Shown here: piece after piece, positions 6,587 to 59,637 of the stretch
Layout of the letters: each line of letters opens with the position of its first letter
Position numbering within the stretch: the first letter of the stretch is position 1
NCBI GenBank assembly: GCA_965262115.1
Contig: OZ253496.1
Location: forward strand, 1,888,001 to 1,952,000
DNA: 64,000 nucleotides
Direction of reading: 5' to 3'
Origin: Nitrospinales bacterium
GTDB taxonomy: Bacteria; Nitrospinota; Nitrospinia; Nitrospinales; VA-1
Notes under the pieces: generated by a model
Databases searched by the model: none
Told to the model about the DNA's origin: nothing
Seen by the model: the letters and a program-made list of their open reading frames with translations, nothing else
Program-made: the position numbers and the translations under genes

Positions 6587-6955
6587 TCCCTGCTAGAGAC
6601 CAACTTACCCCATATCGAATTACACTAAAAATTATTTGTTTTTTTATTAAGCAAGTCAGAGAAACCATATTTACAAATAAAAGCCGACAACAGTTTACGC
6701 TCCTGAAATAACAATTCTTGCTTACTTATATCTTTAACGGGAAATGCGCTTACATAAAGGTCTTCTCTTGAATCTCCATACTTTTCCTTATACGACTTCC
6801 CCCCAATATGGTTCCCACTATAACTATAACCGGGCTTTTGCTGAAAAGCCGCACGGTCAAAATTCCCCCATCTTCGCTTTAGATACGAAGTGATCTTCCC
6901 CTGAATTGGTGGACACATCGAAAAGTGTGGATAATACACTTTTGGAGGTGTTTTT

Positions 6956-7230
6956 ATGGGAACCAAACGCAGGAGTTTCAGTAAAGAATTCAAGTTAGAA
7001 GCGGTTCGATTGGTTATTGAAGTAGGCGATAGCATTGCCCGGGTGTCCCGGGATCTGGGAATCCGTTCTGCCCTTCTGGGTCGCTGGAAACAGGAGTATG
7101 AGGAGGATCAGGGGAATGCGTTTCCCGGCAAAGGACAGCTTAAGCCGGGAGATGAGTTGCAGCAGTTGCGGCGAGAAAACGCTCGCCTTCGTATGGAGCG
7201 GGACATATTAAAAAAGGCGGCAGTTATCTT
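6956..7230 (+). pseudogene. IS3 transposase OrfA, interrupted at its 3' end
   Basis: MGTKRRSFSKEFKLEAV...LKKAAVIF; the native end (SKGSQ*) resumes at 8481-8499. Confidence 0.9.
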
Positions 7231-7301
7231 TGTGATGGCCTCTTCATTAATCTTTATGCCCGGCACGGGTACTTCATGCCCCGAAGCAACTGTGTTAAAT
7301 G

Positions 7302-8460
<1,159 letters not shown>

Positions 8461-8495
8461 TGAACAACATACAAGGGGTACTCGAAGGGTTCCCA

Positions 8496-9305
8496 ATGAG
8501 ATATCGGTTTATACGGGATCATCGAGAAGCATTTCCGGTAAGCCCGATGTGCCGGGTTCTGGAAGTGGGACGAAGTGGGTTCTATGCCTGGCTGAGCCGC
8601 CCCGAGAGCCTGAGGAGCCGTGAGAAGCAGCGATGGGTTGATGAGATCAAAACCGTTTATAAGAAGAGTCGCCAGACTTATGGCAGTCCCAGAATTCATG
8701 AGGACTTGAAAGACAAGGGATATGCCATTGGCAGGCATCGTATTGCCTGTCTTATGCGCGAGCATGGAATCGTTGCCAAGCACAAAAGAAAGTTCAGGGT
8801 GACAACCGATTCCAAACATAATCACCCGGTGGCAAAAAACAAACTGCAACGGCGGTTTAATGTTGCTGAGCCCGGTCAATGCTGGGTTTCGGATATCACC
8901 TATATCCCGACTCAAGAGGGCTGGTTATACCTTGTGGTGACGCTGGATTTATTCCACCGTAAAGTTATTGGTTGGGCCATGGATCGTTGGATAACCCGTT
9001 GGTTGGTAATGAGAGCTTTAAATATGGCAATGAAGAACGGCGGCATGAAACCGGGATTGATTCACCATTCTGACCGGGGGGTTCAATATGCCTGCAACGA
9101 TTTTCAAGCCTTGCTCAATGTTCATGGGATAGAGTGCAGTATGAGCCGGAAGGGCGATTGCTGGGATAACGCCGTGGCGGAGAGTTTTTTCCATACTCTC
9201 AAAGTGGAACTCATTCATAACCGGAACTACAAAACCCGTCAGCAAGCAAAGAAGGATATTTTTGAATATATCGAAGTGTTTTATAATCGGCAACGCCGTC
9301 ACTAA
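8496..9305 (+). pseudogene. IS3 transposase OrfB (DDE) with premature TAA about 18 codons early
   Basis: [31 protein letters not shown]; the frame continues YLGYLSPAEFE after the stop. Confidence 0.9.
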
Positions 9306-9416
9306 TATCTCGGCTATCTCAGCCCTGCCGAATTCGAGAAACAGGCCTATGCCTCTTAACTAACTGTCCACTAAAACAGGGGAAGTTCAGAGTTTAGGTT
9401 TCGGCGGTCGCGTGCG

Positions 9417-9456
9417 TGTGATATTCCCAACATTAACTTCATGCCCTGAAAGGGTA
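9417..9456 (-). repeat. ~40-bp TACCCC mini-element unit
   Basis: TACCCTTTCAGGGCATGAAGTTAATGTTGGGAATATCACA on the minus strand. Confidence 0.85.
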
Positions 9457-11391: not shown

Positions 11392-11512
11392 CGTCATTGC
11401 GAGGAGGCATTGACGACGTAGCCATGATATCCCTTCATTAGCTCTCGTGCCCCGCAGGGGTAAATCCATAAAAGCTGGATCGCCACGCTCCCTACGGTCA
11501 CTCGCGATGACG
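11392..11512. repeat. CGTC-type palindromic repeat pair containing an inserted mini-element (11423-11462)
   Basis: CGTCATTGCGAG...CTCGCGATGACG ends; the CGACGTAGC|AATCC motif is split by a 40-bp unit. Confidence 0.8.
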
Positions 11513-15767: not shown

Positions 15768-15815
15768 CCCCGCTAGGCGCGGGGCCGGTGTGTACGTGGT
15801 ATTCTTCCTCAGCTT

Positions 15816-15874
15816 TTCCCTTGCAGGGCATAAAGGCAAGTGAAGAGGGCATCACATGTGCCTTGGAGGGGTAA
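15816..15874. repeat. Mini-element unit (15816-15856, +) abutting an inverted partial unit
   Basis: TTCCCTTGCAGGGCATAAAGGCAAGTGAAGAGGGCATCACA followed by TGTGCCTTGGAGGGGTAA. Confidence 0.65.
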
Positions 15875-21469: not shown

Positions 21470-21512
21470 TAACCCTGGATTCTTCGTCACTTTGTTCCTC
21501 AGAATGACAAAA
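21470..21512. repeat. CGTC-type repeat half; empty-site equivalent of 59375-59497
   Basis: TAACCCTGGATTCTTCGTCACTTTGTTCCTCAGAATGACAAAA. Confidence 0.8.
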
Positions 21513-21609: not shown

Positions 21610-21652
21610 TACCCCTCTGCGGGGCATGAAAGCTAATGAAGGGGATAACACA
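21610..21652 (+). repeat. Mini-element unit
   Basis: TACCCCTCTGCGGGGCATGAAAGCTAATGAAGGGGATAACACA. Confidence 0.8.
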
Positions 21653-22113: not shown

Positions 22114-24459
22114 GTGTTGAAATCTTTCAAGGGGTTCGCAATTTTTTTTCTGGCCTTTTCAGGGGTCTGTTCCGTTTTCGCTCAGGAAAAGGACTGGACT
22201 TATTGGCAGGAGCGTTTCCTCCAGTCCTCCTCCAATGAAATCTCTGCATCTGAATCGGCACCACATATCAAAGAGGTTCGTGTCACCGCAGCATTGCCGG
22301 ACTACCCATGGATCAAGGTTTCCAGTTACCGGAACCGACCGGTGGAACGGTGCATCACCTGCCACGATGGCATCGCCAGTATCAGCCCTTCCCATCCTCC
22401 CGAGTTTGGCTGTTCCGTCTGCCACGGCGGCGAACCTGAATCGGTAGACAAGGATCAGGCGCACGCGACTTTGATTTATGACCCCGAGGCAGGGACCGGG
22501 AAACGCAATCCTTCCAGCCTGAGTGTGGTGGAACAATCCTGCGGACAATTATATTGCCATGCGGGTCACACCGATGAAGATAGAAATCATGTCAACCGTG
22601 TTAAAAAATCCATGATGAACACGATGGCGGGTGTGATCTCGGGCTTGAGATACCAATGGGCGGCGCAGAGCCGGAAAACCGCACGTTATGGGACCCTTTC
22701 TATTACCGATATCGACGGGTCGGTTCCCAAAAACCAGGGCGCTTTGGAAAAACTGGAACGGCTGCCATTCTTTTCTTCCGCAACAATTCCCCAACCTGTT
22801 TTGGAAAAGGAGATGTCGGTTCCTGTGTCCCGGCACCCGGCAGACCGTCTACTGCGGAAAAGATGTTTCCAATGCCATCTCGATTCACCACCGGCCAAAG
22901 GCCAGTACCGTTCGCAAGGTTGTGCCGCCTGTCATTTTGAATACTCTTCCAGCGGACTCTATGAAGGCAACGATCCAACGATCTCACGTGCCGAACCGGG
23001 CCACGCCCGGTTCCATAAAATCCGCGCCATTCCCTCACGCGCCACCTGCGTTCAGTGCCATCGGGCATTTGAATTGCGAACTCTGGGCACCAAACCCCAC
23101 GAAGAACCGGATGTCTTGGAAGAAATCAAAGCGGAAGAGGACATCACCCCTGTTGACAATTCAATCAATCCTGTTGAAACACCATCAACCGCCCTGGATG
23201 CTGAGACAATAAAGGATGCAATGGTCGAAATACTATCAACCATCCTCGACCTTAAAAAAATAGAAGATGCAACGGTCGAAGCACCCGAAGAGGACGACAC
23301 CGTTAAAGAATTTTCCTTGTTTGCCGCAAAAGGCCAGGTCCTAAAAGATGTGCACACGGCCAAGGGAATGGACTGCACCGATTGCCATACGCAACTTGAT
23401 ATCATGGGGGACGGGAATCTTTATTCCAAGCAACATGAAGCAGTAGAGATTCGTTGCGAGACATGCCATGGAGACAGTCTGTCCTATCCCTCCATTTCAC
23501 AGATCACCGAACCCGGCGATGCGGCGATTCGGGTCAGTAAATATTATAAAGGCGGTTCAAACAAGGTGGAGGACTGGATGGCGGTTTCGGCACACAGTCG
23601 GAAGATGACCAATGTAAAAGTTCAAGATGGACGCATGGTCGCCATTGGCAAGCAGAGTGGCAAGGTTCATGAAATTCCGCTGGTGAAGGATTTTCTCAAT
23701 GCCCACTCCATTCCCCAACACCAGTCCCGTATAGAATGTTCGGCTTGCCACGCACGCTGGGTAGTGCGTTGTCCGGGATGCCATCAGACCATCACGGGCA
23801 GCCAGACCCAAGCACCCATACCCACGCCCCATTTCCTGGATATCGGGGAACCCGCGTTAATGATCGGGCCTCGGGGCAAGGTGGCCCCCATGCTGACCCA
23901 GCCGGAAAGACACCTGACCGTTCTTGATGAGAGAGAAAATCTGATTCCCGTTCTGGGGCGGATGGGAAAGAGACAGGGGCAATATCGGCAGTGGGCTTTT
24001 ACCAATCCGCATGGCACCTCCGGCTCAAACCTGGCTTATGCGCTGAATCCGCATTCCATACAAAAACAGGCCCGCTCTTGCACCAGTTGCCATTTGTCTC
24101 CTGAAACTTTAGGATTAGGGGAAGGCGATCTCAAGATAGGAAAAAACTCCACCGGGAAAAATGATTTTGTCGATCCCTTAAACCGGACGGATAGAATGCT
24201 GAAGGCATCACAGTTTGATCCGCAAGCCAAAGTGTCAATGCGGGGGGAACCCCTTGCAGGAACCCATCAGCTAAAAGCCCGGACCTTTAACCAGAAAGAA
24301 ATAATCCGGATTTTAAGAGTTGGCAATTGCATACCCTGCCACGACCAGTATGATGATCCGGTCTATCAGGATATCAACCAAAGCTATGCCTTTGCACGTA
24401 CAATGGACCACCGTCGCTTACGGGAAAAAATATTGAGTTTGAGGCGATCCCCTGAATGA
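22114..24459 (+). CDS. Multiheme cytochrome c (11 CxxCH plus one CX4CH)
   Basis: Signal peptide; CITCH, CSVCH, CGQLYCH, CFQCH, CAACH, CVQCH, CTDCH, CETCH, CSACH, CPGCH, CTSCH, CIPCH. Confidence 0.92.
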   Translation: MLKSFKGFAIFFLAFSGVCSVFAQEKDWTYWQERFLQSSSNEISASESAPHIKEVRVTAALPDYPWIKVSSYRNRPVERCITCHDGIASISPSHPPEFGCSVCHGGEPESVDKDQAHATLIYDPEAGTGKRNPSSLSVVEQSCGQLYCHAGHTDEDRNHVNRVKKSMMNTMAGVISGLRYQWAAQSRKTARYGTLSITDIDGSVPKNQGALEKLERLPFFSSATIPQPVLEKEMSVPVSRHPADRLLRKRCFQCHLDSPPAKGQYRSQGCAACHFEYSSSGLYEGNDPTISRAEPGHARFHKIRAIPSRATCVQCHRAFELRTLGTKPHEEPDVLEEIKAEEDITPVDNSINPVETPSTALDAETIKDAMVEILSTILDLKKIEDATVEAPEEDDTVKEFSLFAAKGQVLKDVHTAKGMDCTDCHTQLDIMGDGNLYSKQHEAVEIRCETCHGDSLSYPSISQITEPGDAAIRVSKYYKGGSNKVEDWMAVSAHSRKMTNVKVQDGRMVAIGKQSGKVHEIPLVKDFLNAHSIPQHQSRIECSACHARWVVRCPGCHQTITGSQTQAPIPTPHFLDIGEPALMIGPRGKVAPMLTQPERHLTVLDERENLIPVLGRMGKRQGQYRQWAFTNPHGTSGSNLAYALNPHSIQKQARSCTSCHLSPETLGLGEGDLKIGKNSTGKNDFVDPLNRTDRMLKASQFDPQAKVSMRGEPLAGTHQLKARTFNQKEIIRILRVGNCIPCHDQYDDPVYQDINQSYAFARTMDHRRLREKILSLRRSPE

Positions 24460-27182
24460 ACCGTTTCTTTAAAATTTCAGCCCTGCTGGTTTTGGCAGGA
24501 AGTTTTTGGTCCTTTCCTTTTCTGTCTTCAGGGCAGGATTTAGAAATCAAAAATCCATTCGAGTTTCCAGGCAGTGATGAACAGGAAAAGCCCCCTCCAT
24601 CCCCTGAACCTGAGAAAAACCCGTCAGGACTACTCGATCTTTTCATTCAACCTGACGGCGATGCCCAGCCTGAATCCGAAGAAATTTTTGAATCGGATGT
24701 TGGCAGTGGCAGTACGTCCGCTATTGAATCCAAGAGTATGGTTGAGATTCCGAAATCGATCTCGAAAAAAGATTTTGACGCCGCCGATTTCAACGATCCT
24801 TTCTACCGGGTTCGGGGCTTTCAGGAAAATTCAGAAAAAATTTTACAACCGGGAACCACTTTGGATGGAGTCCGGTTTCAGAACTACGGAGAATCCGGAA
24901 AATTCGTTGAGCGGTTTTATCGCGAATCAGGATTCTCTATAGACGCAGTTTTCGGTAAAATTAAATACTTGGAAAAAAGGGGCGGGTGCTACACCTGCCA
25001 TCAGGGCATCGAAGAACTCAGCCCCAACCACAAGATGGCCTGCGTTCGGTGCCATGGCGGAAACCGTCGGGCCAAGTCCCTGCCAAAAGCTCATAAAGGA
25101 CTGGTGCCAAATCCCTCTTCCATGGAGAACGCTCCCAGGTTTTGCGGCAAATGCCATGAGAGCCATGTCAATAAAATCGGCCGCTCGGTGATGGCCACCG
25201 CCAAACGCATGATCAACATCACCCGTTTTGCATGGGGCGCACAACCTGCCGATGAACTGCCCTATTCCCTGTATCCCGAAGAACAGGAGCAACCCTACCC
25301 TCCATCGGGAGACGAGCATGCGGTAGACGGGTTTCTCAAAACCAAATGCCTGAGATGTCATCTCGATGCGCCCGGCCCGCACCGGCCAGGGGATTACCGT
25401 GCAACCGGATGCTCGGCCTGCCATATGGTCTACACCAATGACGGTATTTCTCTTTCGCACGACCGGGCTATTCAGGCTTTGCAGGAAAAGGAAAAAACAC
25501 AAAACCGGTTTGAACGAAATTTCGCCAGCAAATCTCTGAGCAATCGCCGGGGCTATCCCTTGCTACATAAATTCACCACCGCCATACCCAGCGTCCAATG
25601 CGAACATTGCCATAACAATAATGGCGTGGGGCAAGAGTTTGAAGGCTTGTTTGCCATACCTGCACGACCTCAAGCCGCTCCAAAATCCATCAACGATGAA
25701 CAACCGGTTTTGTACGGAAAGGAACATAAGTTCCTGGTTCCCGATATTCACCGTGAAAAGGGCATGCATTGCATCGACTGTCACATCGGCGATGAAATGA
25801 AACCGGAAATCGAACCGGAAGGCCTGCGTTCGGCAGTTCAAATACGCTGTACCGATTGCCACGGCACTCGCTCGAAACCACCCGAAGGATTGCTATTGAT
25901 TGAATCGGACCCCAGAACCAAACAACTGTTAAAGAGAGCTGATTTGAATCCCAACCTGAAAAGGAAAGTCCGCACGGGAGATACGGTACTGGTGAATTCC
26001 AGCTTCTCGCCCATGACACACATCAAGCAGGAGAAGGGCAAATGGATTTTGATTTCCAAAGTAACGGGAAAGAAACACACTATTCCTCTTCTAAAAAATA
26101 TTGAGCCGCCTATCGCCCACCAGATTCCAAAACATATGAAGGAGGTGGAGTGTGCGGCCTGCCATGCCAGATGGTCGGCAGGAGAATGGGGAATGCATCT
26201 CATTCGCGAAAACACATTCGCCCCGGAAAAGTGGAAAGACTGGAACCTGAGCGACCCGGATCTGCAGGAACAGCTCTCAACAAATGAATCTGGCCAACCG
26301 GGAATGATCAACTGGCTCACTGCAAAATCCCACCCTGACAAAATAGAAGGAGACCGTTTGAGGGGATATTGGTGGTCCGTGTTCGCAGAGACCGGATGGT
26401 CGGACCTGATATTGGGGAAAAATGATCGCGGGAAATATTCGATACTAAAACCCCGCTATCAGTATTTAATCACAGACCAGACCAGTCCGCTGGGGCTTCC
26501 GACCAAACGTGCCGAACCACCATTGACTCTGGATGGGGGAGCAGGCCTGATCTGGACCACCTATTCCCCGCATACGATTCGCAAGACCGTCCGCAGTTGT
26601 GAGTCCTGCCATCAAAACGAATTGTCCGCCGGGTTGGGCGACCCTCTACGGCAGAACATTAAAAACGCAACTTCGTTTTTTGATGAATTGCGATTCAACA
26701 ACCAGGTGCTGCCGCAGTTCCAGCTCAAGCAGGGGGTGACGCAAAATGGGGAGCCCCTGCAAACGGCTTTTCCCGGCGATGAGATCCGTTTTCTAAACGC
26801 GGAAGAAATCTCTGCCTTGCAGGAAACGACAGACCGCTATCGTTCGTTCCGCTTCCTGAACTTACGCGAATTGAGTTTCCCGCGCCTGCTTTCGCGGCAG
26901 GAATTCCCCTATGACGCCCGGCACCGTGCGCAGGAAAATAGTATGGGTCCACCACCCTTAAAGGATGACCTTTATTATAATGTGGAAAAAAACCAGTTTG
27001 TGAAAGTCGAAGCTCCTGCGGTTGAAATCCCACCCACGCCGCAGGAATCCGAAGCCCTGGAACCCGGAACCCCGGAACCCGCTCAGCAAAAGAAAATCAT
27101 AGAGTTTTTATACGATCTCTTCCAGGACGACGAAACACTCGATAACGGGAGTGACCAGCCGCCCCTTGAACCTGGACCATGA
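24456..27182 (+). CDS. Multiheme cytochrome c (10 CxxCH), paralog of the upstream gene
   Basis: CYTCH, CVRCH, CGKCH, CLRCH, CSACH, CEHCH, CIDCH, CTDCH, CAACH, CESCH; ATGA overlap. Confidence 0.92.
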   Translation: MNRFFKISALLVLAGSFWSFPFLSSGQDLEIKNPFEFPGSDEQEKPPPSPEPEKNPSGLLDLFIQPDGDAQPESEEIFESDVGSGSTSAIESKSMVEIPKSISKKDFDAADFNDPFYRVRGFQENSEKILQPGTTLDGVRFQNYGESGKFVERFYRESGFSIDAVFGKIKYLEKRGGCYTCHQGIEELSPNHKMACVRCHGGNRRAKSLPKAHKGLVPNPSSMENAPRFCGKCHESHVNKIGRSVMATAKRMINITRFAWGAQPADELPYSLYPEEQEQPYPPSGDEHAVDGFLKTKCLRCHLDAPGPHRPGDYRATGCSACHMVYTNDGISLSHDRAIQALQEKEKTQNRFERNFASKSLSNRRGYPLLHKFTTAIPSVQCEHCHNNNGVGQEFEGLFAIPARPQAAPKSINDEQPVLYGKEHKFLVPDIHREKGMHCIDCHIGDEMKPEIEPEGLRSAVQIRCTDCHGTRSKPPEGLLLIESDPRTKQLLKRADLNPNLKRKVRTGDTVLVNSSFSPMTHIKQEKGKWILISKVTGKKHTIPLLKNIEPPIAHQIPKHMKEVECAACHARWSAGEWGMHLIRENTFAPEKWKDWNLSDPDLQEQLSTNESGQPGMINWLTAKSHPDKIEGDRLRGYWWSVFAETGWSDLILGKNDRGKYSILKPRYQYLITDQTSPLGLPTKRAEPPLTLDGGAGLIWTTYSPHTIRKTVRSCESCHQNELSAGLGDPLRQNIKNATSFFDELRFNNQVLPQFQLKQGVTQNGEPLQTAFPGDEIRFLNAEEISALQETTDRYRSFRFLNLRELSFPRLLSRQEFPYDARHRAQENSMGPPPLKDDLYYNVEKNQFVKVEAPAVEIPPTPQESEALEPGTPEPAQQKKIIEFLYDLFQDDETLDNGSDQPPLEPGP

Positions 27183-41153: not shown

Positions 41154-41301
41154 TACCCATGCTGGGCACGAAGTTAATGTTGGGGATATCACGTATACCT
41201 CCCGGGCACGAAGTCTAAGGTGGAATATAATGCGCTCACGAAAGCTTTGGTTGGGATTATTACCCTTTCAGGGCATGAAGGTTAAGGTTGGGAATATAAC
41301 G
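41154..41301 (+). repeat. Tandem array of four diverged mini-element units (one partial)
   Basis: Units at 41154-41193, 41194-41232, 41233-41260, 41261-41301. Confidence 0.85.
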
Positions 41302-42932: not shown

Positions 42933-43084
42933 ATTTTCAGTAAAAGATGGGGATGAAGTGACACTGGGCAACAGGAGAATATTGTCAAACAGGAGGAGAA
43001 CTTAGGCTAAAAACGTGGGCAAAATAACTGTTTGTATTTCAATCATGGGACCCCCCACTGGATCTACCCCTTGTATGTTGTTCA

Positions 43085-43300
43085 TAAGGGAAATTTGTAA
43101 TAGTTGTTCCTGCGAGTTCTGTGAAAAACCGGTTTTTGGTTTTCCACAAGCTCCCAGGATTTGATTCAGGGCACAATAGATCGTTTACCCCTGGGGCTTT
43201 TAAGCCCGTCCCGCAGCGCAGATCGTTGTGTCCTATTTTGATTAACCCGAACAGTTGCCTGGGACTTTGAGTCCGCATCGACAAGGTTGGGAGACCAAAT
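43085..43300 (+). ncRNA. Putative IS110 bridge RNA, copy 3
   Basis: Hairpin 43109-43158; TTTACCCCT 43184-43192; CCCGCAG 43210-43216; ACAGTTGC 43251-43258; ACAAG 43281-43285. Confidence 0.85.
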
Positions 43301-43301
43301 T

Positions 43302-44232
<931 letters not shown>

Positions 44233-44455
44233 CATTTAACACAGTTGCTGCGGGGCATGAAGGCTAATGTTGGGGACACCACAAACACCGATGGACAGAG
44301 ACAAAAGATTCCCTCCCTTCATATGGAGGGACTTAGGGAGGGTTGGATTGACCGCCCGGAGTTTTGTCATCGCGAATCGCGAAGCGGCGTGGCGACCCAG
44401 GTTCTTTCATTGGGAATTGAATTAATATTGCAAGGCTGGATTGCCGCGCTCCTTT

Positions 44456-44533
44456 TACCCCTTTGGGGCATGAAGGTTAAGGTTGAGGATATTACATATA
44501 CCTTCGGGGCAAGAAGTTAATGTTGGGAACATT
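44456..44533 (+). repeat. Two tandem mini-element units truncating a CGTC-type repeat (44364-44455)
   Basis: TACCCCTTTGGGGCATGAAG...ATTACA then TATACCTTCGGGGCAAGAAGTTAATGTTGGGAAC, directly after GGATTGCCGCGCTCC. Confidence 0.8.
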
Positions 44534-45291: not shown

Positions 45292-45889
45292 GTAAAAGAC
45301 GAGTAAATTTAAATGTCCGCTTGGAAAATTTATACCGAAGCGCAAATGGCAACCTCAATAAATGGAGTTGGAGAGGTAGGCTAAAAGATGAACGATTGGA
45401 AACCGAAAACTAACTAAACAGGCAAAGATCAAATGGTGGTTCTGGCTCCTGTTAGCTGTTTTTTGTTTTGGTATATGGGTCAACCATCAAAGCATCCATC
45501 AAATGCGATAAAGATTGATCTTCCCCTGAATTGGTGGACACATCGAAAAGTGTGGATAATACACTTTTGGAGGTGTTTTTATGGGAACCAAACGCAGGAG
45601 TTTCAGTAAAGAATTCAAGTTAGAAGCGGTTCGATTGGTTATTGAAGTAGGCGATAGCATTGCCCGGGTGTCCCGGGATCTGGGAATCCGTTCTGCCCTT
45701 CTGGGTCGCTGGAAACAGGAGTATGAGGAGGATCAGGGGAATGCGTTTCCCGGCAAAGGACAGCTTAAGCCGGGAGATGAGTTGCAGCAGTTGCGGCGAG
45801 AAAACGCTCGCCTTCGTATGGAGCGGGACATATTAAAAAAGGCGGCAGTTATCTTTGTGATGTCCTCTTCATTTGTCTTCATGCCCCGA

Positions 45890-47080
<1,191 letters not shown>

Positions 47081-48103
47081 GGGTACTCGAAGGGTTCCCA
47101 ATGAGATATCGGTTTATACGGGATCATCGAGAAGCATTTCCGGTAAGCCCGATGTGCCGGGTTCTGGAAGTGGGACGAAGTGGGTTCTATGCCTGGCTGA
47201 GCCGCCCCGAGAGCCTGAGGAGCCGTGAGAAGCAGCGATGGGTTGATGAGATCAAAACCGTTTATAAGAAGAGTCGCCAGACTTATGGCAGTCCCAGAAT
47301 TCATGAGGACTTGAAAGACAAGGGATATGCCATTGGCAGGCATCGTATTGCCCGTCTTATGCGCGAGCATGGAATCGTTGCCAAGCACAAAAGAAAGTTT
47401 AGGGTGACAACCGATTCCAAACATAATCACCCGGTGGCAAAAAACAAACTGCAACGGCGGTTTAATGTTGCTGAGCCCGGTCAATGCTGGGTTTCGGATA
47501 TCACCTATATCCCGACTCAAGAGGGCTGGTTATACCTTGCGGTGACGCTGGATTTATTCCACCGTAAAGTTATTGGTTGGGCCATGGATCGTTGGATAAC
47601 CCGTTGGTTGGTAATGAGAGCTTTAAATATGGCAATGAAGAACGGCGGCATGAAACCGGGATTGATTCACCATTCTGACCGGGGGGTTCAATATGCCTGC
47701 AACGATTTTCAAGCCTTGCTCAATGTTCATGGGATAGAGTGCAGTATGAGCCGGAAGGGCGATTGCTGGGATAACGCCGTGGCGGAGAGTTTTTTCCATA
47801 CTCTCAAAGTGGAACTCATTCATAACCGGAACTACAAAACCCGTCAGCAAGCAAAGAAGGATATTTTTGAATATATCGAAGTGTTTTATAATCGGCAACG
47901 CCGTCACTAATATCTCGGCTATCTCAGCCCTGCCGAATTCGAGAAACAGGCCTATGCCTCTTAACTAACTGTCCACTAAAACAGGGGAAGATCAGTATGT
48001 GATATCCCCATCATTTATATTTCTGCATTGGACGATGTTTCCTATTCGGAATAATGATAAACTTGGCAATAAACTCAAAACTCTCGATATGGAGATTGTA
48101 AAG

Positions 48104-49572: not shown

Positions 49573-51166
49573 TCAAATATTCCTTTGTCTCTGTAAGTTC
49601 AGGAAAACCCGGGTCGGCATTTTTTAACTGGCTGAGCAATTGTTCATAGGTTTCTTTTGCTGCGGATTTGTCGCCACTCGCTTTGGCGGCGCGAGCCGCC
49701 CCCACCAGAGAGCGGAGTCGGTTGCGGTGCCGCAACAGGGAGATGGCAAATTGCTCCTGGGCCTGAACCGGTTTGTCGGCTTGCAGATAAACTTCACCCA
49801 GCAATTCGTAGGTGGGTTTGAGAATGCGCGGCGGTCCCGACGGTGCCGGAAGTTTCTCTTCAATCAACGTTGCTTGTTTGGCGAGTTCGATGGCGGCGTC
49901 ATAATTTTTCTGGTGCAGCTTCATCGCCACCCGGATTTCCAGTTCCCACACTTCAAGGCTTTCGGGGCGTTTGAAATAGTTTTCGCGAAACCCTTTTTCG
50001 CGGATGCTTTTTAATTCGGTAAGATATTTATGGGCTTCTTCCTGTTTCCCCTGCATGGCGGCGGCGAATCCGCGGACGAAACTATATGCGGCCTTGGAAT
50101 AACTTTTAGGGTTCCATCCCTCTGGCGGAGCGAGTTGTTCTGCCCATTGCTCGGTCTCAATAATGGCGGCGGCGAACATGCGGGGATAATATTTTCCGGC
50201 TCTTAAATTGGATTTGAACTCGATTCCCTCCCGCATATCTTTTTGCTGGATGGCAAAAACCGTAGCGGACTCCTGCAAGAGTCCCTGTTGCAGGGTGGTG
50301 TAGTGCAGCCATTGCAGGCTGTGGTAACCGCGTTCGCTTTTCGGCAGGTTTTTTCTTTCCACCCAATCGACAGAAGTGGTCCACCCGTTTTGATTGGAGG
50401 TTTGCGCTTCCTGCCACATGCCAAGCTGCACAAAGATATGCGCCGGCATGTGCTGGGCGTGAGCCGATGCCGGAGCAATTTTGGCGAACCGTTTGGCGGA
50501 AGGCAAGGCCAGCCGCGCCAGATCGGGAGTGTCGAGGGCGTGGATCGCGTAATGCGCGGCGCAGGGGTGATCGGGGCTCCTCTGAAAAACCTCCAGCGCA
50601 ATAGCGCCCGACTCGATTTGCAACGGCAATTTGTTTTCCGCGTTTCGTGCCAGGCCTAAAAGAGACAGGCTGTAAAAACAGGCGGCCTCCAGGTCATTGG
50701 GATAGGTGCTATAAATTTTTTCCATGGCTTTGGAATAAGCTTTATCGCGCATGGGTTTTTTGCCGTCCCCATAAAGCAGCCGGACAGCATGAATATAGTC
50801 TTGTTCCCGCTGTGTTAACGTTGCATTTTTCGGGATTTTAGCCAGCGCGGCCTGTGCAGATTCGGCATCCTGTTCTTCCCAGAGTGGATGGTTGTGGGCC
50901 ATGGCTTGTCCCCAGTAACCCATTGCGAAACGCGGATCAGCCTTGGTAGACCGCTCAAACGCCGCCAGCGCTTCGGCGTACCAGAAAGAGTGCAGGGCGG
51001 CCACACCGCGCAGGAAATGCTGTTGCGCCTGCCCGCTACCAGAAGTGGGGAAGGAAACGGTGCCCAGTTTCGCGGCCGGGCTCATCGCCTGGGCAAAGCT
51101 TGTGGTCAGCGTAAAAATTATGATCAATGTGATAAGCCGTACGCGCGCCAAAAACATGTTATCCAT
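49562..51166 (-). CDS. Secreted TPR-like protein
   Basis: LGTVSFPTS..AQ..F.RG.A.LHSFWY, HP.A.HY.IH, HAQHMPAHIF. Confidence 0.8.
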   Translation of the reverse strand: MDNMFLARVRLITLIIIFTLTTSFAQAMSPAAKLGTVSFPTSGSGQAQQHFLRGVAALHSFWYAEALAAFERSTKADPRFAMGYWGQAMAHNHPLWEEQDAESAQAALAKIPKNATLTQREQDYIHAVRLLYGDGKKPMRDKAYSKAMEKIYSTYPNDLEAACFYSLSLLGLARNAENKLPLQIESGAIALEVFQRSPDHPCAAHYAIHALDTPDLARLALPSAKRFAKIAPASAHAQHMPAHIFVQLGMWQEAQTSNQNGWTTSVDWVERKNLPKSERGYHSLQWLHYTTLQQGLLQESATVFAIQQKDMREGIEFKSNLRAGKYYPRMFAAAIIETEQWAEQLAPPEGWNPKSYSKAAYSFVRGFAAAMQGKQEEAHKYLTELKSIREKGFRENYFKRPESLEVWELEIRVAMKLHQKNYDAAIELAKQATLIEEKLPAPSGPPRILKPTYELLGEVYLQADKPVQAQEQFAISLLRHRNRLRSLVGAARAAKASGDKSAAKETYEQLLSQLKNADPGFPELTETKEYLNDF

Positions 51167-51257: not shown

Positions 51258-51581
51258 CGTCATCGCGAGTGACCGCAAGGAGCGCGGCGATCTAGCAGGA
51301 CTCTCTTGTCATTCTGAATACTTCGACCATGCTCAGCACAGGCTCCGTGAAGAATCTCGTTTTGTTCGATGGGATGGAGGGGTTTGCTTTAAACGTAATG
51401 GAGGGAGGCTGTCATGCTGAGGCCCTCGAAGGATATTGTTATTTAATTTTCTCTCCCATAACAAACTGATCCTCCCCTCTCATGAGAGGAGGCAAGGCGT
51501 AGCCGCGGAGGGGTGTGGATTTTTTCTGATGGAATTCATAAGCCAACCCTCCCTTGGCCCCTCCCTATGAAGGGAGGGGAA
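51258..51581. repeat. Cluster of CGTC-type and CCCTCCC-type palindromic repeats
   Basis: CGTCATCGCGAG.., TGTCATTCTGA..GAAGAATCT, TGTCATGCTGAG..CGAAG, plus the inverted homolog of 38774-38888. Confidence 0.75.
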
Positions 51582-51606
51582 GATCATACTTTATCTTCTT
51601 CCCCGC

Positions 51607-51873
51607 AGGGGTATCAATACCCAAGCACGGTGTGGAACACAGCACCGATGCCCACGCACCAGTAAATGCTGGCACCGATAAGATTCCATATTGAGGCTGT
51701 GATTTCTTGGAAGGTCATTGCACCACCGCCTTAACCACAAAGAAAAAGAACGCGAGCGTGGTGATGACGGTGTTCGCCACCGCCGACCAGATCATGATTT
51801 TGTGAGTGAGTTTTTCCATAGCCTTTATATCGTCCTCATTTTTTAAGGTCTGTGATCGGCCAAAAGGGGACTC
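51607..51873 (-). repeat. ~250-bp duplicated segment (other copy 53130-53377) containing a small disrupted ORF and a palindromic site
   Basis: GTGTGGAACACAGCACCGATGCCCACGCACCAGTAAATGC and flanking sequence shared. Confidence 0.85.
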
Positions 51874-59344: not shown

Positions 59345-59385
59345 GAAGCACCCTCTTTGAGGGAGAGCTTTACATAACCCCGGAT

Positions 59386-59561
59386 TACCCCTGCGGGGCA
59401 TGAAGTTTAATGAAGAGGATATCACATACCCCTGCGGGGCACGAAGGTTAAGGAAAAATATCACGTCTTCGTCACTTTGTTCCTCAGAATGACAAAATAG
59501 CCCAGTATTGTCATGCTGAGCTAGTGATATTTGACCTTTGAATTCTTGCCCCGTAGGGGTG
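59386..59561. repeat. Three mini-element units (59386-59426 +, 59427-59465 +, 59523-59561 -) inside CGTC-type repeats
   Basis: TACCCCTGCGGGGCATGAAG..ATCACA then TACCCCTGCGGGGCACGAAG..ATCACG; the third unit splits GTCATGCTGAGCT|TCTCGAAGCAT. Confidence 0.88.
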
Positions 59562-59637
59562 TCTCGAAGCATCTTGCTTCTTCGTTTGTTCGACTTACGC
59601 AAAGGTCTCTCTGCGAAAGGCCTAATAGATAAAGCTC

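Follow-up and report, generated by a model that had tools for sequence, protein, structure and literature searches.

Very small dispersed repeats (SDRs) of Nostoc and its relatives were reported in 2008, as cited in PMC3116915 and PMC4390886, and the part of PMC4390886 that concerns SDR5 describes its precise insertion into HIP1. The repeat analysed here, a 39–41 nt sequence that we call the unit, is likewise a very small dispersed repeat with precise insertion, its sites forming 63 target clusters; it differs from the cyanobacterial SDRs in the phylum of its host and in using a loose target motif rather than HIP1. SDR1-8 (Elhai et al. 2008, Genome Res 18:1484) reportedly resemble the unit in self-nesting, compensatory stems and the lack of a known mobiliser, and differ from it in size, at 21–27 nt. 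Judged by description, rather than by comparison of sequences, the SDR group would be the closest kind to the unit.

Two better characterized groups are also similar. REP, BIME and REPIN sequences are, in the sections of PMC3116915, PMC8266576 and PMC3733652 that describe them, short intergenic hairpins in hundreds of copies with a mismatch in the stem and, at the base of the hairpin, a conserved motif as a possible guide. All of these features have a counterpart in the unit. However, column frequencies show no GTAG or CGTC tag beside its stem, there are no inverted doublets and no RAYT gene, and the unit has a fixed length and a 20–25 nt tail. The unit is not itself a REP-type repeat but lands in such repeats, and the CGTC repeats that it invades (described in part of PMC3733652) are something different. 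IS200/IS605 elements and their non-autonomous derivatives share with the unit the absence of target duplication, a one-sided target preference and, if the pairing suggested below is correct, an end that pairs with an internal guide, although in a different register. For IS200/IS605 and RAYT it is established, according to the relevant part of PMC8266576, that cut sites are chosen by pairing with a guide. The unit departs from IS200/IS605 in having one hairpin rather than two, no fixed 4–5 nt target, no TnpA in three of the genomes that carry it (G000, G007 and G013) and no replichore bias. As to IS91- and Helitron-like elements, the unit has no fixed target, and a Y2 search (PF04986) gave no match in a setting where the positive controls were silent too.

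The window, i.e. the whole 64,000-nt stretch of contig OZ253496.1 that was analysed, lies in a genome with the working label G000; other G numbers denote relatives. Its unit copies outside the IS110 insertions, and the repeats that hold some of them, are as follows.

59386..59426, plus strand: 41-nt unit, a tandem insertion at the 5-prime edge of the following unit (profile and covariance-model matches)
59427..59465, plus strand: 39-nt unit with C16 and last base G, splitting a CGTC/SRM-type repeat between GGAT and TCTTC (covariance model)
59523..59561, minus strand: 39-nt unit with A16 and last base T, splitting a second REP-type repeat (sequence, models)
59363..59611, no strand assigned: MITE-like host cassette with REP-type hairpins and short terminal inverted repeats (sequence)
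21477..21508, plus strand: empty paralogous copy of the target repeat (sequence)
21610..21652, plus strand: 43-nt unit (orthologue empty in G007, filled in G019)
11423..11462, minus strand: 40-nt unit in an SRM-type repeat (profile and covariance model)
9417..9456, minus strand: 40-nt unit (profile and covariance model)
15816..15856, plus strand: unit nested in an opposite-strand unit, whose pieces lie at ~15797-15815 and ~15857-15873 (profile and covariance model)
41154..41301, plus strand: unit cluster with units at 41154-41193, 41194-41232 and 41261-41301 and a tail lacking the hairpin at 41233-41260 (models)
44456..44532, plus strand: two tandem units, the second degenerate (profile)
51581..51613, minus strand: partial or degenerate unit (profile; covariance model E 0.007)
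7231..7271, minus strand: 41-nt unit lying at offset 20 within another unit, the one interrupting IS3 orfA (profile)

The original prediction of a mobile mini-element in this window listed its copies, and all of them stand where it placed them: nhmmer gives 18 matches, two of them weak, and the covariance model gives 11 matches at E<1e-4 among 19 listed. The cluster at 41154, counted there as four units, contains three; the remaining piece (41233-41260) has no hairpin and appears to be the tail, with the edit, of a unit that was interrupted. The comparison of an empty repeat (21477-21508) with the same repeat split by two units (59386-59465) stands as described, with the correction that 21477 is a paralogous REP-type repeat and not an orthologue. 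The cassette at 59363..59611 carries its three units as passengers. At the orthologous site in G019 the first of these is missing, the gap being 41-nt or 43-nt depending on the alignment, and the second (59427..59465) is present in both genomes. MITE-like cassettes with short terminal inverted repeats and REP-type hairpins occur at many other sites, and related cassettes of 133 and 177 nt are present or absent between orthologues, some with flanking direct repeats. Elsewhere in the window, the region 22114-27182 holds two consecutive genes for large multiheme cytochromes (781 and 908 aa).

A profile built from 140 distinct full copies (nhmmer) finds 444 matches at ≥8 bits in the 2.68-Mb genome, 361 of them at E<0.01, against three weak matches, the best of 9.2 bits, in the reversed genome. 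The consensus reads TACCC-S-TNC-S-GGGCA-Y-GAR, then a variable purine-rich spacer, then AYATCAC-R. Most copies (343 of 395) lie outside ORFs of ≥100 aa, which make up 81% of the genome, and many of the 52 inside such ORFs look like spurious ORFs or IS3 read-through. The exact pattern is present in 21 of 41 relatives, all of the same genus, and covariance-model matches extend to 48 of 120 genomes of the phylum and 10 of 30 genera, some by a single weak match. Within genera the distribution is patchy, e.g. 2 of 11 genomes in g19 and 9 of 17 in g20. A partial GTDB scan (30 of 64 parts) gave 131 unit loci, and each of the 80 listed has a title naming Nitrospinota; at 102 of 124 metagenome loci a homologue of a G000 protein is found, with a median identity of 82%. 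Plasmid and phage records yielded no match. In IMG/VR there were 15 loci, and three contigs bear unit-like copies. One of these contigs, a 50-kb phage-like contig (loci L209-L211, L214, L215 and L221), holds about six units, so phages may ferry the unit between hosts; no mobiliser-like ORF was seen at the one IMG/VR locus inspected by eye. Rfam has no match to the unit, the window giving only a tRNA and the locus under study a chance match at E 2.3. A literature search that covered main texts, few of them from subscription journals, found no description of a 39–41 nt Nitrospinota family. The family is thus apparently undescribed, as had been proposed, although the novelty does not extend to the kind, very small mobile repeats having been reported for cyanobacteria.

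The unit is a real, mobile, dispersed micro-element. When the copy in IS3 is removed in silico, orfA reads to ...VIFSKGSQ*, and at the unit site the IS3 homologues of G016, G030 and G003 have an exact 41-nt gap, with orfA ending as predicted. The unit at 11423-11462 splits its repeat between CGACGTAGC and AATCC, also as predicted. When the two flanks of a unit are joined, an exact empty allele exists for 38 of the 260 pairs of flanks, and many of these 38 are tandem cases. In 29 of the 38 the length removed includes the last variable base and there is no duplication; six are ambiguous by one base, two are one base longer and one is an artefact. The 138 orthologous comparisons divide into 23 sites that are shared, eight that are cleanly empty, 89 where the unit is absent (84 with a larger indel) and 18 that have diverged, i.e. 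orthologous sites do differ in presence and absence. On realignment, four of the eight clean pairs are exact, three are off by one base and one by two. In an unbiased catalogue of indels between orthologues, 11 of 18 rows of 38–45 nt are units, at nine sites; nested composites of 79 and 82 nt are present or absent as a whole; and there are four further filled and empty orthologous pairs.

Self-nesting leads to the same boundaries. With inner units and IS110 copies removed, 34 outer units become regular, at 39–43 nt. In 697 filled contexts, same-strand self-insertions lie at offsets 9 (23 cases), 10 (1), 20-21 (10) and 30 (6), a spacing of roughly 10 nt, and those on the opposite strand at 17-18 (8); a further 72 contexts are tandem. 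The exact IS3 gap, the filled and empty orthologous pairs and the nesting uphold insertion without target duplication. There are no terminal inverted repeats, so that neither classical MITE feature is found in the unit. No circle or excised form was seen among the contigs, the only material in which such forms could be sought.

The original prediction saw only a 5' hairpin, a description that proves incomplete. Within the hairpin, positions 6 and 10 change in compensation (CG 353, GC 89 and TA 22 of 499 distinct units). At the other end, the last base, previously written as R, is A, G or T; it belongs to the unit and is tied to base 16. The pair 16:last is Watson–Crick in 429 of the 499 distinct units and occurs in three states (TA 254, CG 161, AT 14), the remainder being TG (40), CA (14) and others (16). 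Permutation stratified by length and three other positions gave a mean of 321 and a maximum of 350 over 5000 rounds. The pair is Watson–Crick in 167 of 186 units in G000, 102 of 113 in other genomes and 86 of 105 in metagenomes. Because copies are related, these counts overstate independent events, and the controls leave that relatedness partly in place. In 58 diverse 39-mers the pair is CG in 28, UA in 19, UG in 6, AU in 2 and other in 3; their covariation score of 0.255 was reached in none of 500 shuffles, and controls with the register slid gave ≤0.03. The neighbouring pair, 17:penultimate, is near-invariant, which the search pattern partly fixed.

The co-variation of base 16 with the last base suggests that the hairpin likely extends across the joined ends. 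Together with the 17:penultimate pair, it would stack the first and last bases side by side on bases 15-16, and the ends, once joined, would make up a single stem of 8 bp that contains one mismatch. As to which strand folds, a GNA triloop and a 2:14 wobble favour the bottom strand, and the excess of T.G over C.A at 16:last (40 against 14) favours the top.

These features are the basis of the reading that we favour, tentatively and somewhat short of even confidence, in which the unit is a non-autonomous micro-element moved as a folded single strand, its ends aligned by internal pairs and rejoined by a cut-and-join enzyme acting in trans. On one strand, bases 1-6 would pair with 10-15 and the last two bases with 16-17. 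An enzyme with IS200/IS605- or RAYT-like logic, in which DNA–DNA pairing picks the cut sites, would then release a copy or a circle. Insertion would be into intergenic hairpin repeats at the loose motif W-K/N-S-Y-N-C, the slash marking the junction, whose downstream side resembles the unit's own start. Either the insertion or later homing between repeats would often turn GG at +3/+4 into CT. Copy number would be raised further by hitch-hiking in MITE-like cassettes and in IS3, and IS110 would use the unit as a landing site.

Most targets are intergenic repeats, namely CGTC/SRM-type and DUF559-type repeats, the CCACTCGGCG family and the unit itself, and insertions in genus g15 have the same registers. 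On the downstream side the motif n[not T]YnC is present at 106 of 186 sites in G000 and 88 of 113 elsewhere, compared with a background of 0.087 in the same contexts, and in 26 of the 63 target-cluster representatives. The preference is for a loose motif, with no fixed tetra- or pentanucleotide, and the IS3 target (AAGAT) lacks the downstream motif. Target sequences fold with a mean of -6.2 kcal/mol, against -4.3 for random intergenic and -4.8 for shuffled sequence, although no fixed place of the junction in a stem or loop was found. Flank sharing among similar units is confounded by one dominant target family. A second family of mobile modules, 94–101 nt long with variable terminal hairpins, is intergenic in G000, shows orthologous indels (e.g. 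at L153:1082, L162:14062 and L162:15437), and is a frequent target of the unit.

Several observations count against the self-aligning reading. The searches found no enzyme and no long element with both ends, and unit position 10 does not co-vary with target +6; the IS3 target is off-motif, half of the eight clean orthologous pairs are 1–2 nt off, and the folded strand is ambiguous. Lagging-strand targeting is reported for IS608 and ISDra2 in part of PMC6006769. The unit is oriented 80/74 and 120/121 on the two replichores, which were set from GC skew in an assembly that may be chimeric at its start, and this lack of bias, given the behaviour of IS608 and ISDra2, counts against an IS200/IS605-like version. 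The stretch G000:C1:10000-100000 has a GC content of 0.37–0.43 compared with 0.47 elsewhere, simple tandem repeats and no units, and is probably foreign DNA joined to the contig.

Searches for candidate families found no mobiliser in G000, as had been noted for the window, in keeping with a non-autonomous element. The suggested HUH/Y1 or RAYT mover finds no support: Y1 genes are absent from G000 and from G007 and G013, which are among the relatives richest in units, and present in 9 of 41 relatives, no RAYT (Y1) gene flanked by the unit was found, and the ten Y1 loci of the relatives yielded a single weak partial unit match. There were four tyrosine recombinase matches, and a rough scan for HUH motifs gave six matches in 2317 ORFs. 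The 61 ORFs with units on both sides contain no recurring mobiliser-like family, and no longer element bearing both unit ends was found. Three cas1 genes, at G000:C1:768805, 2126375 and 2643996, have neighbouring ORFs that read by eye as cas-like, apparently of three CRISPR-cas types, with a short array near 765600. A reading that we hold to be unlikely, yet deserving of serious consideration, is that the unit is the self-aligning substrate of a new transposition chemistry, whose enzyme, outside Y1, Y2, RT, IS110, Ssn and DUF559, would join without duplication and write a two-base edit into the target; the unit would then stand for a widespread class of micro-elements with a mobiliser of its own.

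The two-base edit is seen at the targets themselves. GG at +3/+4 reads CT in 24 of 34 filled unit loops (19 distinct inner units) and in none of 962 loops without an insertion; a search of 23 genomes turned up no edited unit that is uninterrupted. The CCACTCGGCG family, unrelated to the unit loop, has CT at the same place in 8 of 10 filled copies compared with 1 of 249 empty copies. One orthologous pair reads GGGGC when empty and GGCTC when filled. Among 135 filled sites with an empty match of the same length, the only kind that the comparison could find, all 22 differences at +3 are changes to a pyrimidine; DUF559-type targets show no edit. Both coupling of the edit to insertion and homing with co-conversion are possible.

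Homing is central to an explanation without any dedicated enzyme, in which host repair or recombination captures short folded strands at nicks in hairpin repeats and the filled alleles then home into paralogues. One-sided co-conversion is expected from homing and the edit fits it; one inner subfamily occurs in several different outer units, each time flanked by GGCTC; repeat families supply most of the targets; and none of the candidate mobiliser genes searched for tracks the unit. Host repair would, however, leave the fixed ends and the three-state 16:last pair unaccounted for. Units also occur in unique DNA such as IS3 orfA, the same CT change appears in two unrelated target families, and the unit is patchy (10 of 30 genera) though repair enzymes are universal. 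We regard this explanation as somewhat unlikely.

The IS3 elements raise a different alternative, an RNA intermediate, in which the transcribed unit would fold like a tiny intron and be copied by target-primed reverse transcription, with a flap giving the one-sided edit. All 17 IS3 copies of the genome, which are nearly identical, carry the unit at one site in orfA; those in the window lie at 6891-9390 and 45516-47990. Read by hand, the filled element does not reach orfB by a shift at its A6G motif, be it -1 or +1. As no OrfAB fusion can thus be made, the filled IS3 was either moved in trans by a copy outside the assembly or the unit is removable, and removal at the RNA level could allow 17 near-identical filled copies. 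The contigs of three runs listed no 41-nt skip or empty form of IS3, although contigs are no evidence of absence. In most copies the loop of the top strand, taken together with base 10, is UNCG, and the 16:last pair tolerates T.G. On the other side, co-variation backs the 6:10 pair and hence a triloop, not a UNCG tetraloop; orientation shows no bias relative to flanking genes (89 against 82); and 343 of 395 copies avoid ORFs, which argues that the unit is not efficiently spliced out. The RNA-templated mover that had been suggested also lacks an enzyme, as the RT in G000 (G000:C1 near 50200-51000) is broken and none was found in G007 or G019. An RNA intermediate is accordingly rather improbable.

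Less probable still, in our view, is that a small hairpin-associated nuclease, of the Ssn GIY-YIG or DUF559 type, makes nicks in its own repeats into which the unit is then ligated. Many targets are indeed of SRM or DUF559 type, and Ssn-like genes flanked by SRM repeats, sometimes with units, are found in G000, G015, G018 and G019. Two such GIY-YIG genes with SRM-type flanks lie at G000:C1:2573200-2573535 and 2378945-2379076, the second truncated. However, the Ssn-like query had no match in any of six g15 genomes, each of which has 12–57 unit matches. The cut made by SsnA, as described in part of PMC11893778, is upstream of its repeat, whereas the insertion sites of units are in the loop or the distal arm of the stem. 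The DUF559 genes keep repeats of their own: of the nine PF04480 matches in G000 only one is near a unit, against a baseline of 18%, and none was found in G007. Most of the short DUF559 nuclease genes (e.g. 2140509, 377385 and 735444) are flanked on both sides by CCCTC-type hairpin repeats, an arrangement like that of ssn genes with their repeats.

Could the unit be immobile alone, a passive module of MITEs, REP cassettes and IS3 multiplied further by local tandem duplication? In 84 of the 138 orthologous comparisons it is lost with a larger block, and 72 of 697 contexts are tandem. Such carriage does contribute to copy number; as the sole explanation it is contradicted by unit-only indels at ≥9 orthologous sites, the exact IS3 gap and the 63 target clusters, and we consider it very unlikely.

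Three copies that had been recognized as split, at 7272/8476, 43065/44250 and 45856/47081, are present, and the interrupter in each proves to be an IS110-family element at a CT core, with DEDD and Transposase_20 domains (Pfam).

7287..8473, minus strand: IS110-family element at the CT core in a unit loop (unit halves 8480-8474 and 7286-7272; Pfam)
8328..8358, minus strand: predicted IS110 bridge-RNA target-binding loop, TACCCCTT ... CCCGAAG, matching loop variant TTC (fold)
43072..44247, plus strand: variant IS110 within a unit whose loop is TGC (unit halves 43065-43071 and 44248-44283; Pfam)
43186..43216, plus strand: predicted target-binding loop of the variant IS110, TACCCCTG ... CCCGCAG (sequence)
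45892..47078, minus strand: third IS110, in a unit that interrupts the second IS3 (unit halves 47085-47079 and 45891-45856; Pfam)

All 24 complete IS110 copies lie at CT in a unit loop; TACCC forms the left flank of 23 of them, and in G013 a relative of 88% identity likewise adjoins a unit. The left end folds (z -5.0), with an internal loop that carries TACCCCTT and CCCGAAG. By the left and right guide rules of IS621, taken from the part of PMC11208160 that sets them out, the predicted bridge-RNA guides match the unit loop and the CT core and co-vary with the loop variant: in the element at 43072, within a TGC loop, the guides are TACCCCTG and CCCGCAG, both altered together with the target. 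This IS110, with its CT core, its long left end and its two guides for a hairpin target, is similar to IS621 and ISPpu10, the IS110 elements that target REP hairpins (PMC11208160); the difference is that the target here is itself a mobile micro-element, and the likeness concerns the parasite rather than the unit. That IS110 elements target hairpin repeats is already known, as described in part of 10.64898/2026.03.19.712850. In the window, the recombinase ORFs end early, at 264 aa compared with about 316 aa elsewhere, and the IS110 copies are ~10 nt shorter, at 46117-46134 and 7510-7530 (minus strand), than those in other contigs. That the IS110 bridge recombinase also moves the unit is hardly credible, in spite of the 24 of 24 copies in the unit loop and the matching guides, as it acts at the CT core in the loop and not at the unit ends, unit junctions share no core with their targets, and among the 23 genomes of the genus only 6 have it, G019 not being one of them. 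Its action inside the loop and its limited occurrence mark IS110 as a parasite of the unit rather than its mover.

To our knowledge, how repeats of <50 nt spread with no evident transposase has been an open question since the SDR report of 2008. The unit family gives this question testable handles: a 39–41 nt substrate, an end pair with three states that can be broken and restored, a target motif and a two-base scar. Its patchy distribution over 30 genera could let co-occurrence point to the mover. The family also exposes a three-level chain of parasites, in which IS3 carries the unit and IS110 is guided to the unit, and a natural pair of predicted IS110 bridge RNAs re-tuned to two variants of the same target.
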